From the NCBI GenBank assembly GCA_964016885.1, contig OZ024746.1:63054001-63118000 (forward strand): 64,000 bases of DNA, given 5' to 3'. The stretch is from Eledone cirrhosa (Eukaryota). Under the pieces are notes generated by a model. That model made no database searches, had not been told where the DNA came from, and saw only the letters and a program-made list of their open reading frames with translations. The position numbers and the translations under genes are program-made. Numbering within the stretch: position 1 is the first letter of the stretch; the number at the start of each line of letters is the position of its first letter. Below are positions 52,869 to 57,740 of the stretch, one piece after another.

Positions 52869-53450
52869 CACGTACATACATATATGTATACAGACGTACA
52901 GTAGTATGTATATATATATACATACATGCACACATATATATATATATGTACGCATGGATTCACCGAACATTTATTATAATGCTCGGTGTGTTTGTAAACA
53001 AACATCCCGAATTAAGCCGTACAGTGTCTAGTAACCATCGTTGCACGTTTGTTCAACCCTGACAAAGGAACGCTGTACTAGTTTCAAGCTTATTAGCTAT
53101 CGTCAGCAACGTATACCTTCCTGCCAGATGATTGAACATCTGAAAGTATATACTTTCCTTATGCATATTAACGGCTGAGCAGCCTAATTTGCATATCGAG
53201 TGAGTTAATCGGCCGGGGTACCGAAAACGATAAACTCTTAATACGGCTGTTACTTAAATATAAGTATGTACACGTACATACATATATGTATACAGACATA
53301 CAGTAGTATGTATATATATATACATACATGCACACATATATATATGTACGTATGGATTCACCGAACATTTATTATAATGCTTGGTGTGTTTGTAAACAAA
53401 CATCCCGAATTAAGCCGTACAGTGTCCAGCAACCATCGTTGCTCATTTGT
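52869..53450 (-). mobile_element. Retrozyme-like element, ~1.45 tandem copies of a 402-bp unit
   Basis: CACGTACATACATATATGTATACAGAC at 52869 and 53271; carries a hammerhead. Confidence 0.75.
53059..53127 (-). ncRNA. Type I hammerhead ribozyme (intact core)
   Basis: Minus strand: ACGUUG-CUGACGA-U-AGCU(AAUA)AGCU-U-GAAAC(UA)GUA-CAGCGU. Confidence 0.75.
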
Positions 53451-53857
53451 ATGTATGTATCTATATATATATATATATAAGGAAAAGAAATCGAAAATGG
53501 AACTGGACTCATTTTAGGAATATTTATTTATTTCCTTTACCGGTTTCACAGTTCTTAAGCTTTTCAAAAGTAAAATTTTCCATTTCTTTTCTTTATATTT
53601 TCACCTGTGTAGGACATCTCGTTTTTTTTTATTTAAAAAAAAACCCTCATTTTCTTTATATATATATATATTTATATATATATATATATATACATACTTA
53701 GTTTTTTGTTTGTTTCAAAAAGACAAGATGGTGGTGAAAAATAGAACAAAGAAGAGACACAAAGTGACAACAAAAGTCTATGCTATGACGACTAAAGAGC
53801 TTTGACAATTAACGATTCGGTTATTAAGCTATCAGATTGGGAAATTAAAATAATAAA

Positions 53858-54120
53858 GTGTTCATATAAATGGTGCTAATTCGAAACCATTCAGTGTGGG
53901 AGTCGGTGTCCACCAAAGATGCATACTGTCACCTCTCCTGTTCATTATTTACATGAACAGGATTGACATGCTAACCGGGTTGGAAGTGGTATCATGACTG
54001 TCGGGTGTTAAATCAATCGGCAGCAATTTGCAGACGACATGGTGTTACTTAACTCGATAGAAGGTGATCTCCGACTTGCACTCGATAGGTTTGATGACGA
54101 GTGCTGCATTGCTGGAAAGG
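53858..54120 (+). pseudogene. RTE-clade reverse transcriptase fragment
   Basis: VHINGANSKPFSVGVGVHQRCILSPLLFIIYMNRID ... QFADDMVLL. Confidence 0.75.
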
Positions 54121-54544
54121 AAATCATAAACATTTCAAGTAGTTTCCTTTTTACAACTGCCTATCTTTAAAAAAAAGTCTTCATCATTTCCGGTGCAGAG
54201 CTGGTGAAGCAGTCGGGAATAGAGAATATCTGCAATCGGGAATTCTATAAATTTGCCAAACAAGCCATTTGAGATTTCATTACATGCTATAAAAACATAT
54301 ACATATATATTTATAATTTAATCTTGAAAAGGCGAGTTAATTTTTATTTTGTAAACAAACGAAAATTTTAAATCCTATATTTCGGCACAAAAAATAGTCA
54401 AACCATAACTGTTAGAAAACACTAGAAATAAATGTATGTAGTATGTGAAGTTCATTTTTTTAGGTGATTTGTATTTTAAAAAACGCCATTGAATTGTTGA
54501 TTTACAAGGAAGAAAACTGACTACAGTTTTTATACCAGCGAGTA

Positions 54545-54869
54545 GATGAGGCGACGAATTCGCGGTCGTTAGAATGCTTTGCTGTATTCGTTCCGGCTGT
54601 CTGCGCTCTGAGTTCAAATCCCGCCAAGGTCAACTTTGTCTTTTATCCTTTCGAGATCGATAAAAAAAAGTACCAGTCCAGTGCTGGAGTCGTTTCTTTC
54701 TCTGTATCTCTTTCTCACTTCATCTATCAATCCCTCTCTTGCTGTGGAAGAAATCGGTTCTGTTCAGACCGGGAGAGAAAACGAGTTCCCCAGAGGTTTT
54801 TTTTTTAAATGTCCAAGAAACACCGTATGTTACTACGGCACCCGCACGACTCAACTAAGAGTTACGGGT
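54545..54869 (+). mobile_element. SINE family A head, CT-rich linker, module C
   Basis: GAGTTCAAATCCC, central domain, then GAAATCGGTTCTGTTCAGACC...GAGTTACGGG. Confidence 0.65.
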
Positions 54870-55124
54870 AAAAAAAAAGAAAGAAAAAGATAGAAAGAAT
54901 AATAATGTTATTCTAGTCGTATTTTTTAATTGCAAGCCACATGAGATGATATCACAATATGATCTATCTTGATATAACTAGTTTAATTAAACTTAATTGT
55001 GATGTGATGTCTGGATAGACGGATGTAATTTATAGCCCTAGTTAACAGAGATAATTGTATGTGATGACAATAGACAGAAACAGTTATCAATTTCGATAAT
55101 TAAATTGTTGCTATTACAAGTAAT

Positions 55125-56180
55125 ATAATTCATCACAAAAGATGCCCAAAGATACAGTAATGGACTACAAATTTCAGAAGTCCCATTTACTGCTGAAATG
55201 GAAAACACAGAAAAAGCAAAGCAGGTAAAAGTAACTGCAAAGAAAGACTGCTACAGAAACTGGCTAAGAAATGGTAAGAAAAGCCTCTGTATGGAAAATA
55301 CCCAGAAAGAGCTAACAATCCTGATGTTGATAAAACTTTAACCCATCAGTGGTTGGCATCCTCTGGACTGAAATCGGAGACTGAAGGACTAATTATATCA
55401 GCACAAGATCAGTGTCTGCCAACAAAAAATTACCAAGCCAACATAATAAAAAAATGGATGCAACCTATTGTGCCGTGTATGTAAAAAAACAACCAGAGAC
55501 CATTGATCATATAATTTCAATGTGCAGTCCTATAGCTCCAACCGAATACCTAAACAGGCATGACAGAGCTGCACAATACATACATTGGATAATGTGTAAG
55601 CATTTTGACCTGCCCCATCAAAAGAATTGGTGGGAGCATCAACCACCTCCCATACTTGAAAAAGATTACATCTCAATCTTGTGGAACTTTAGCATCCAAA
55701 CAGACCGAAAAATAGATGCAAATAGACCTGATATAATACTGAAGGATTTTAAAAAGAGGGTATGCCTGCTAATTGATATGTCCGTTCCAATAGACAAGAA
55801 TGTATCTATAAAAACATTTGAAAAATTGAGCAAGTATAAGGACCTGGAGATAGAAATTGGAAAAATGTGGAAATTGAGAACTAAAACAATACCAGTGGTT
55901 GTAGGCGCTCTAGGAATGATACCTAAAGGGTCTAATGATTACTTATCGCAAATCCCAGGAAACCCGCGTATAGGAGAAATACAAAAGATAGTACTAATGG
56001 GAACTGCCCATATACTAAGGAAGATTCTGTCAATATAAGTACATCACAAGTCTAAACACCTAAAGATGCATGTGTGTGTATGTATGTTCTTTCTTGAACA
56101 TGGCGGAGCTTGTTGTCTCTTGAGGTCACTGGTTGTGACTTGGTGATAACTCGTATGAACATAAAGCAAGATAAATGCAA
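55125..56180 (+). mobile_element. 5'-truncated R4/Dong-type non-LTR retrotransposon with restriction-like endonuclease
   Basis: WLASSGLKSETEGLIISAQDQ, frameshifted CRVC...ETIDHIISMC knuckle, RHD, RPDIIL, LIDMSVP, KLSKYKDL, VVGALG; ends in (TAA)n. Confidence 0.85.
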
Positions 56181-56208
56181 TTATAATAATAATAATAATA
56201 ATAATAAT

Positions 56209-56392
56209 AATTGTTTCTACTTTTGGCACAAGGCCAGTAATTATCCCAGTGCATTACTGGTACTTTATTTTATCGACCCCGTAAGGATGAAAGGCAAAGT
56301 TAACCTCGGCGGGATTTGAACTCAGATCATAAAGGGGCGTAACTCTATACGTGAAAGCATGGCGTCCGACCCTCTACCGATACTGCCAATCG
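56209..56392 (-). mobile_element. SINE family A, tail-to-tail with the Dong-type element
   Basis: Shares the (AAT)n run at ~56183-56209. Confidence 0.88.
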
Positions 56393-57209
56393 ACCAATGT
56401 CCGTTTACAATTGTTTCGCTACTCCATATAATGTTTCTGGATCAAATGATTATAGATCATTATTGATCTGGTTCAGATGAAGGTTTAACTTAGGTAAAAA
56501 TGGAGCAGTTCATCGGAACTTCAAAAGAGATAATGAAAATAATAATTCACCAATCTCTCTTCTCCTCTCCTATCTCCATCTCTCTCTTTAAGATTGGTTT
56601 ACTCTTGAACTGTATATATATATATATATGTATATATATGTATATATATGTATATATGTATAGATATGTATATATATATATATAAAAACTTAAGAAAATT
56701 AACAAAGAGAAGACAAGACAACGAACGGAAACAAAACAAAATGAAAAATAATTTTTTTAAGGTGAAACTTTAAAAAATTATCTTTTTTAAATAAAGATAC
56801 AAACGGAGAGCACAGAACTCCATGACCATCTGTCGTTGAGACGGACTTTGACAGTTTCGACCCCGACCAACGATACTGCTGGTCCACCCGAAGTCAAAGC
56901 ATATATATATGTGTGTGTGTATACATATATGTGTGTGTGTACAATTTGTTTTAGCTCTTAATGAAACGAAATTTCATTTCCCACTCTTAGTATGGCTGTT
57001 ACTTAAATATAAGTATGTACACGTACATACATACATGTATACAGACGTACAGTAGTATGTATATATATATACATACATGTACACATATATATATATATAT
57101 GTACGTATGGATTCACCGAACATTTATTATCATGCTCGGTGTATTTGTAAACAAACATCCCGTATTAAGCCGTAGTGTCCAGCAACCATCGTTGCTCGTT
57201 TGTTCAACG

Positions 57210-57278
57210 CTGACAAAGGAACGCTGTACTATTTTCAAGCTTATTAGCTATCGTCAGCAATGTATACCTTCCTGCCAG
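57210..57278 (-). ncRNA. Hammerhead copy with mutated stem III (GAAAA for GAAAC)
   Basis: Plus strand TACTATTTTC where the other copies read TACTAGTTTC. Confidence 0.55.
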
Positions 57279-57421
57279 ATTGTTGAATGTATATACTTAC
57301 CTTATGCATATTAACGGCTGAGTAGCCCAATTTGCATATCGAGTGGGTTAATCGGCCGGGTGCACCGAAAACGAAAACTCAGCCGTTAATATCCATAAGG
57401 TAAGTATATACGTTCAACAAT

Positions 57422-57490
57422 CTGACAGGAAGGTATACGTTGCTGACGATAGCTAATAAGCTTGAAACTAGTACAGCGTTCCTTTGTCAG
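57422..57490 (+). ncRNA. Type I hammerhead ribozyme with extended, bulged stem I
   Basis: Core CUGACGA 57443-49, GAAAC 57464-68, GUA site 57471-73; stem I ACGUUG/CAGCGU extended by CUGACA-GGA / UCC-UU-UGUCAG. Confidence 0.8.
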
Positions 57491-57740
57491 TTTTGAACAA
57501 ACGAGCAACGATGGTTGCTGGACACTACGGCTTAATACGGGATGTTTGTTTACAAACACACCGAGCATTATAATAAATGTTCGGTGAATCCATACGTGCA
57601 TATATATATGTGTGCATGTATGTATATATATATACATACTACTGTACGTCTGTATACATGTATGTATGTACGTGTACATACTTATATTTAAGTAACAGCC
57701 GTACTAAGAGTGGGAAATGAAATTTCGTTTCATTTTTTCC

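Follow-up and report, generated by a model that had tools for sequence, protein, structure and literature searches.

Within the window, a stretch of 64,000 nt, we identified two insertions of the same non-coding repeat, whose positions are given below with the prefix u. Insertion 1 occupies 52856-53450 on the minus strand and is a 5'-truncated partial tandem; it starts at u24 and continues into the following lap as far as u218, covering 1.45 laps of the 431-nt unit. The initial annotation had described 1.45 tandem copies at 52869-53450 starting about 23 nt after a predicted ribozyme cleavage site, and both observations were borne out, the insertion beginning 23 nt past that site. Its other end lies at u218, the no-tail site defined below, adjoining a short TA run. 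A 29-nt deletion (u243-271) falls at its tandem junction, 53234/53235, and an intact type I hammerhead maps to 53051-53137 (minus strand; core 53106-53100, predicted cleavage after 53076).

The second insertion, 56960-57746, is a single head-to-head inverted structure. Its left arm (56960-57374, minus strand) runs from approximately u277 round to u265, just under one lap; the outer end is atypical, lying inside the tail, and in its hammerhead (57202-57288, minus strand) the palindrome of stem III is interrupted at 57232 and stem I has one change. The right arm (57378-57746, plus strand) extends from u328 to the canonical tail site, u277. Its last 59 nt (57688-57746, plus strand; u219-277) form an optional 3' extension of the type called a tail in Penelope-like elements (PLEs), and a (TA)21 target microsatellite (57744-57785, unstranded) adjoins the tail end. 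This region had been read as an exact ACTC-to-ACTC monomer at 56983-57380 plus an inverted partial copy. On the left, ACTC corresponds to u239-242 in backward reading, and on the right it comes from the opposite arm (u327-330); given also the deletion in insertion 1, the match is a coincidence. What had been proposed as two circular permutations in the window therefore goes back to a deletion together with an inverted insertion that was misread, and the argument for RNA copying that was built on them fails. Each arm in the window contains one hammerhead only, so both copies fall outside the definition of an active retrozyme as two consecutive units, given in the accessible part of a recent preprint (Li, Clavereau and Pollet 2026; bioRxiv 10.64898/2026.07.22.740005), whereas the family falls within it.

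Thirty-four cleavage-to-cleavage intervals (21 distinct) span 420-479 nt, with a majority sequence of 431 nt; the unit is thus longer than the ~400 nt first estimated. It is non-coding, as initially proposed. Overlapping stop-to-stop frames reach at most 107 aa and are largely of microsatellite origin, and the unit yielded no open reading frame (ORF) with reverse transcriptase (RT) plus GIY-YIG domains. Leaving out its internal TA-rich microsatellite, the unit has a GC content of approximately 40%. The genome contains 10,046 exact copies of a 31-nt core (reversed-pattern control, 0), and tandem units are joined head to tail with no ORF in between across the 34 intervals. The ends, variable at 5' and fixed at 3' in TA, are unlike those of LTRs, and the family, both dispersed and in tandem, lies within the 150-450 bp unit range that characterizes retrozymes. 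The sampled loci lie in the initial 103 Mb of a single contig, with the 30 loci of best similarity added; a duplicate row (L171, identical to L170) and a second copy of L214 were dropped. Separately, removal of 25 overlapping loci left 183.

The hammerhead of the right arm (57412-57498, plus strand) combines the CUGACGA core (57443-57449), GAAA and the palindromic stem III ACUAGU, with A57473 as the last base ahead of the predicted cleavage. Stem I carries a long bulged extension, of about 23 pairs divided into three segments, and stem II has a U.U at its base. The full type I motif was accordingly located as first described; the U.U, which had been called unusual, recurs in two other hammerhead types from PLE-bearing loci, found by a scan that did not demand it. 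At the stem I pair u398:u3 (n = 258) we observed U-G 182, A-U 35 and G-U 27 times; one subfamily breaks the pair u387:u8 (23/250). Of 95 passes selected without reference to the core, 68 had it intact. Subfamily variants occurred at 0/31 core sites vs 18/267 elsewhere (p 0.23), so we do not claim purifying selection on the core. An Rfam scan of 50000-60000 at E<=1, a search that had been suggested at the outset, returned 94 matches, to models of microRNAs and snoRNAs that fell on microsatellites and hairpins, and none to a hammerhead. Searching the genome with RF00163 gave 18 matches, and the 10 examined belong to a different, canonical hammerhead family without similarity to the 431-nt unit. 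As Rfam is silent on the motif, the hammerhead assignment rests on motif and covariation; judged by its core, palindromic stem III and stem I covariation, the motif is real, and self-cleavage after GUA is predicted. In folding predictions a double-hammerhead structure is isoenergetic with the minimum free energy structure (-176.9 vs -177.1 kcal/mol), and the probability of stem III in the circle is 0.0.

The unit also contains, as noted initially, an octamer and internal microsatellites. The octamer (53187-53194, plus strand; u313-320) occurs again at 57330-57337. A repeat with an snRNA-type promoter, such as newt satellite 2, would be expected to carry an octamer and a PSE that match those of host snRNA genes. 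Here, the octamer was absent from the 300 nt upstream of 7/7 U1 loci scanned and from five U2 upstream sequences read by eye, and it is present in 2.7% of shuffles; a 5-letter PSE-like word occurs once, within stem I, at about chance level. These results lend no support to an snRNA-type promoter. On the host side, a retroelement fragment near the insertions has its best match in an Octopus bimaculoides protein (72%), and the sequence is consistent with an octopod host. Three runs from other organisms gave only 9-14 low-depth contigs each and were not counted as spread.

Genome-wide, the repeat has two fixed 3' end sites, u218 and u277, separated by 59 nt. Exact junctions into TA numbered 4,248 at u218, vs 13,027 sequences reading through, and 3,135 at u277, vs 3,225 reading through, with reversed controls at 0 for both. 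A TA repeat directly followed 57/66 u218 ends and 48/53 u277 ends. The 5' ends vary among copies, giving arms of 39 to >1,561 nt, and show no pile-up at the cleavage site (flanking bins 5/111 and 3/106). At u261-300 there are 19 stops where ~7.5 would be expected (p 2.8e-4 before correction for multiple bins); this excess is found in one set only and falls in part on an indel. The different start points first taken for circular permutations are thus variable 5' ends on elements with fixed 3' ends. Fixed termini across copies had been expected to speak against the original proposal; they are found at the 3' end, with the 5' ends variable. Such fixed 3' ends favour internal initiation of the PLE type and do not argue against an RNA intermediate.

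All 52 arms that reach a first cleavage site read through it, as do 10 of the 11 that reach a second, and 35/89 arms are longer than one lap. The complete read-through at the first site indicates that the template, instead of being a monomer cut at the hammerhead, was circular or else a multimer that had stayed uncleaved. In an anole PLE the hammerhead is dispensable for insertion and unprocessed RNA is the main substrate (PMC11167929), and read-through alone is therefore no proof of a circle. We lean slightly towards the circle as the main template. The competing reading, a possible but less probable one, is that a PLE copies an uncleaved linear transcript of the tandem arrays, with the hammerhead as a passenger or rare cutter and no circles formed. 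The anole result suits this reading, as do the poor cleavage of minimal PLE hammerheads in vitro (PMC4209133) and the 5' end excess at u261-300, which could mark a start site. Arrays of mixed subfamilies also suit a linear template: at least 30% subfamily discordance was seen in 4/47 tandem loci (and in 3/53 inverted loci), and a single rolled monomer circle cannot account for such mixed loci. Against it, the arms crossing two cleavage sites would have traversed linear RNA that paired hammerheads are predicted to cut, compensatory stem I variants have been kept, and circles accumulate from mussel and coral retrozymes (PMC7229834).

Inverted insertions are common, 49 of the 89 loci anchored at u277 having an inverted arm. 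These 49 arms end at u214-225 in 39 cases, in the microsatellite in 7 and elsewhere in 3, with 0 at u262-280. Among loci not selected by their ends, 32/34 classifiable inverted insertions have one tail and one no-tail end (p 3.5e-8; 21 further insertions have an unclassifiable end); insertion 2, with u265 and u277, is one of the two exceptions. This strict pairing is not predicted by random fold-back, and we consider it improbable that the inverted structures are products of a single cDNA copying itself by snap-back (self-priming) or of DNA-level rearrangement after insertion. Self-priming has been proposed for head-to-head PLE inversions (PMC3846280), and in 19/34 simple inverted pairs one arm could have been copied from the other; in the remaining 15/34, neither arm could be a copy of its partner. 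The non-canonical end on the left arm of insertion 2 would also fit a snap-back, as would the subfamily variants common to both arms (42/53 loci, vs 22% of 5,000 random pairs); this sharing also counts in favour of the PLE-mobilised model set out below. Among 60 rare variants that recur inside one locus, read in the hammerhead sense, 10 were A>G and 3 T>C (p 0.035), vs 47:73 for unshared variants (p 0.016; 8 vs 3 loci). In this post hoc test, the bias is a weak hint of RNA-editing scars in the repeat copies.

A search for potential helper elements identified no helper among the PLEs examined. Autonomous-type PLEs do occur in the same genome as the repeat: there are 150 scored GIY-YIG matches, and 3/3 proteins scanned contained RT and GIY-YIG in one ORF. 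When one PLE ORF was searched for homologues, the matches included bivalve-named ones at 46-50%. Many PLEs of this genome end in (TA)n and carry similar minimal hammerheads, located 120-200 nt upstream of the TA junctions. With end anatomy the same as that of PLE pseudo-LTRs, the repeat might instead be the orphan end of an unsampled autonomous PLE and its copies stumps of that element's insertions, the more so as the PLE loci examined were 50 of 10,596 first-look candidates. In those 50 loci the unit matched no PLE end, and the best tail resemblance, to one of four families tried, was equalled by 44/1,000 shuffles. We nevertheless regard the orphan-end explanation as quite unlikely: the 34 head-to-tail intervals have no ORF between units, a PLE ORF fragment lies within about 1.5-2.5 kb of only 8/206 unit loci (assigned by proximity), and three unit copies found in PLE loci stand away from the ORF ends. 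The model offered with the initial annotation, in which circles are reverse-transcribed from arbitrary starts and integrate as circular permutations, would suit the variable 5' ends and the arms that cross the cleavage site, but it is contradicted by the two fixed 3' sites and by the nature of the window's two supposed permutations, and we give it almost no credence.

The broader proposal, of a PLE-linked retrozyme family with circular or multimeric RNA as its template, is upheld on other grounds: more than 10,000 cores, tandem arrays, read-through in 52/52 arms and PLE-type ends. We class the repeat as a new member of the non-LTR retrozymes, and a PLE-mobilised retrozyme is very probable. With good confidence we propose that this non-coding 431-nt hammerhead retrozyme is likely copied into TA microsatellites by a PLE RT/GIY-YIG endonuclease from RNA uncut at the hammerhead, probably a circle. 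Tandem arrays would be transcribed, and the palindromic 2-bp stem III would make neighbouring hammerheads cut as a pair, a lone one being predicted inactive; released monomers would be ligated into cut-resistant circles. The PLE protein would cleave a (TA)n target on both strands. From each cut end, cDNA synthesis would start at an internal site, u218 for one and u277 for the other, with the same or identical RNA as template. These cDNAs would terminate at differing positions and be joined head to head; capture of only one cDNA would leave a 5'-truncated partial tandem such as insertion 1. A more specific version, which we put forward tentatively, is concerted twin priming, in which a dimeric PLE enzyme cuts both (TA)n strands and the cDNAs from u218 and u277 are made on a single circular retrozyme RNA that sometimes carries A-to-I edits, with synthesis rolling on beyond the ligated junction of the hammerhead. 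If true, this would link two-site initiation in vitro to the inverted-repeat-plus-tail structure and provide genomic evidence for retrozyme circles as template.

The repeat resembles the non-LTR retrozymes of coral, mussel and axolotl (Cervera and de la Pena 2020, PMC7229834; bioRxiv 10.64898/2026.07.22.740005) in having a tandem, non-coding unit a few hundred nt long, its single type I hammerhead per unit, its thousands of copies and the presence of PLEs in the same genome. Its sequence appears unrelated to theirs as far as the comparison went, and its cleavage and RNA circles are predicted. In the article text covered, we found no cephalopod retrozyme. Mobilisation of retrozymes by PLEs was proposed in both, in their accessible text, without reported insertion ends; 'tail', 'terminus' and 'junction' each occur 0 times in the main text of the preprint. 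Compared with the minimal or dimeric type I hammerheads found in metazoan repeats and PLEs (PMC4209133, as far as its accessible sections describe them), the repeat shares the short palindromic helix III and a predicted need for the dimer, and departs in its long stem I extension, in the U.U at the base of stem II, common to other hammerheads in this genome, and in going unscored by RF00163.

The closest parallels in insertion structure are with endonuclease-bearing PLEs (PMC3846280, PMC8557442, PMC11167929). In the available portions of these reports, inverted PLE insertions have a tail at one end (PMC8557442, PMC3846280), and the tail is delimited by two internal RT start sites, both target strands being cut and extended (PMC11167929). 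The repeat shares with these elements 5' truncation, partial tandems, a head-to-head inverted arm, an optional one-end tail, two internal start sites, a hammerhead upstream of the ends and AT-rich or (TA)n targets. Unlike them, it lacks an RT/GIY-YIG ORF and had no parent PLE in the 50 loci, and its tail is 59 nt, vs the 30-40 nt described for PLEs. Retrozymes have been described before, as has the PLE tail, so the element in itself only adds a probable octopod to the range of the class. Its value lies in serving as a test bed: this young family supplies thousands of junctions, in which the two arms each have their own base-exact start site and the ribozyme site is read through almost without exception. 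From these junctions follow exact predictions for testing a PLE in vitro, and they are relevant to how the inverted repeats and tails of PLEs form.

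The window holds two insertions of a single non-coding repeat, here numbered from u1, the first base 3' of the predicted cleavage site. In fetched loci of the same genome, the 34 cleavage-to-cleavage intervals (21 distinct) span 420-479 nt and have a majority sequence of 431 nt, longer than the ~400 nt of the initial annotation. Insertion 1 (52856-53450, minus strand) runs from u24 through one full lap and on to u218, lacking u243-271, a segment present in sister copies. Insertion 2 (56960-57746, both strands) is a single head-to-head structure. Its minus arm goes round from about u277 to u265, its plus arm covers u328 to u277, and (TA)21 comes next. 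The ACTC words thought to bound an exact monomer fall at different unit positions on opposite arms of insertion 2; both this reading and the shorter length arose because the deleted junction of insertion 1 was treated as the norm. Two arrays elsewhere (L061 and L168) show a two-unit periodicity, with intervals alternating between 420 and 422 nt and an exact pattern recurring every 842 nt, that could reflect either a dimeric template or later DNA duplication.

Between the insertions, and unrelated to the unit, lies the disrupted C-terminal portion of an ORF from a non-LTR retrotransposon (55100-56040, plus strand) with a 217-aa open stretch at 55385-56038. Its closest protein over 55463-56035 is from Octopus bimaculoides (72%; next 64%), which makes an octopod host probable on the strength of a single transposon fragment rather than of a phylogeny. 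A dispersed repeat of ~190 nt at 56192-56396, presumably SINE-like, recurs in the window in at least nine more copies that are 81-94% identical. A 97-nt hairpin at 50098-50194, a near-perfect inverted repeat matched by microRNA models, is possibly another fold-back insertion. Short tandem duplications occupy 48000-48344 (period 147), 48901-49131 (period 123) and 63344-63592 (period 123).

The hammerhead parts noted originally are indeed present at 57412-57498: the core CUGACGA, a stem II of 4 bp whose base is a U.U, GAAA, an ACUAGU palindrome and A57473. Folded in isolation, the hammerheads show no more than modest stability (z -1.9, -0.8, -0.9), and Rfam returned no hammerhead match in the region of the insertions; its type I model matches another family elsewhere in the genome. 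Comparison among copies supports the predicted motif: stem I pairs are retained in 89-100% of passes (183 loci), and variants at u398:u3 are U-G in 182, A-U in 35 and G-U in 27 of 258. The pair u387:u8 is disrupted in one subfamily, and the absence of subfamily variants from the core does not reach significance (p 0.23). The U.U, initially considered unusual, recurs in other hammerheads from loci of this genome bearing Penelope-like elements (PLEs) and is therefore not special to the unit, one of the two scans having required U.U in its pattern. A separate canonical type I family (L279-L288), unrelated to the unit, exceeds the Rfam RF00163 cut-off.

None of the U1 and U2 genes examined is preceded by the unit's octamer, a word that arises by chance in 2.7% of shuffles; those shown (among L117-L136) carry no octamer within 300 nt upstream. 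These genes have in common the word TCAGT ~55-60 nt upstream, a candidate host PSE.

Exact matches to the 31-nt core number 10,046 in the genome (control, 0). Exact-pattern counts identified two fixed 3' ends entering TA repeats: u277, where 3,135 copies terminate and 3,225 read on, and u218, where 4,248 terminate and 13,027 read on. The 59 nt between them (u219-277) form an optional tail; 5' ends are scattered. The first 91 u277 matches, out of 3,135, gave 89 distinct mapped loci, of which 49 have an inverted arm, ending at u214-225 in 39, in the internal microsatellite in seven and elsewhere in three; none of the 49 ends inside the tail. Of the inverted insertions in a set picked by core or similarity, 34 could be classified at both ends and another 21 at only one. 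In 32 of the 34, a tail end was paired with a no-tail end; no insertion had two no-tail ends, and the two that had two tail ends include insertion 2.

Every one of the 52 tail-ended arms extending as far as the cleavage site continues through it. A second site is crossed by 10 of 11 arms, and 35 of 89 arms are longer than one lap, although these lengths are first alignment segments and hence biased short. The usual template was therefore something other than a cut linear monomer. Subfamily variants are common to both arms at 42 of 53 loci (22% of random pairs) and to tandem laps at 38 of 47. Some evidence favors a circle, namely the arms crossing two cleavage sites and a fold predicted to act only as a dimer: stem III has a probability of 0.0 in the modelled circle, and in a two-hammerhead transcript the paired fold would cost nothing (-176.9 versus -177.1 kcal/mol), which fits the dimer-only cleavage of such motifs described in PMC4209133. 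Some evidence likewise favors an uncleaved linear multimer: clearly mixed subfamilies (three of the 53 two-arm and four of the 47 tandem loci), an excess of 5' ends at u261-300, and the anole PLE, whose main substrate was unprocessed RNA (PMC11167929). On the hammerhead's own strand, shared rare variants lean toward A>G (10 versus 3), a weak hint of edited sense RNA. Snap-back is excluded for 15 of 34 simple pairs, because neither of their arms could have been copied from its partner.

The literature searched yielded no cephalopod retrozyme, and the main text of PMC7229834 mentions no octopus, squid or cephalopod; one may still be in print, as a 2026 preprint places its list of four invertebrates in supplements. 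The unit is a real feature, belonging to the known class of non-LTR retrozymes.

We scored 150 GIY-YIG elements among 10,596 candidates in the genome; all three ORFs scanned carry RT and GIY-YIG domains, and in many copies a minimal hammerhead precedes a terminal (TA)n. No parent or helper PLE for the unit was found among 50 loci. One PLE family (L232, L234, L249, L253, L275, L277) bears, downstream of an ORF ending QPLLN, a hammerhead-like motif that lies ~200 nt before the TA junction. Its core has U and A in place of the usual C3 and G8, its stem III is palindromic, and its site is GUA.

We conclude that the insertion ends record a PLE tail footprint, which takes the place of the circular permutations first proposed. 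According to PMC11167929, the anole enzyme acts on both target strands, cutting and extending each, and tail length equals the distance separating two internal RT start sites. An optional tail confined to one end of inverted insertions is a published PLE signature (PMC3846280 and PMC8557442), and 32 of the 34 classifiable inverted unit insertions show the same pattern.
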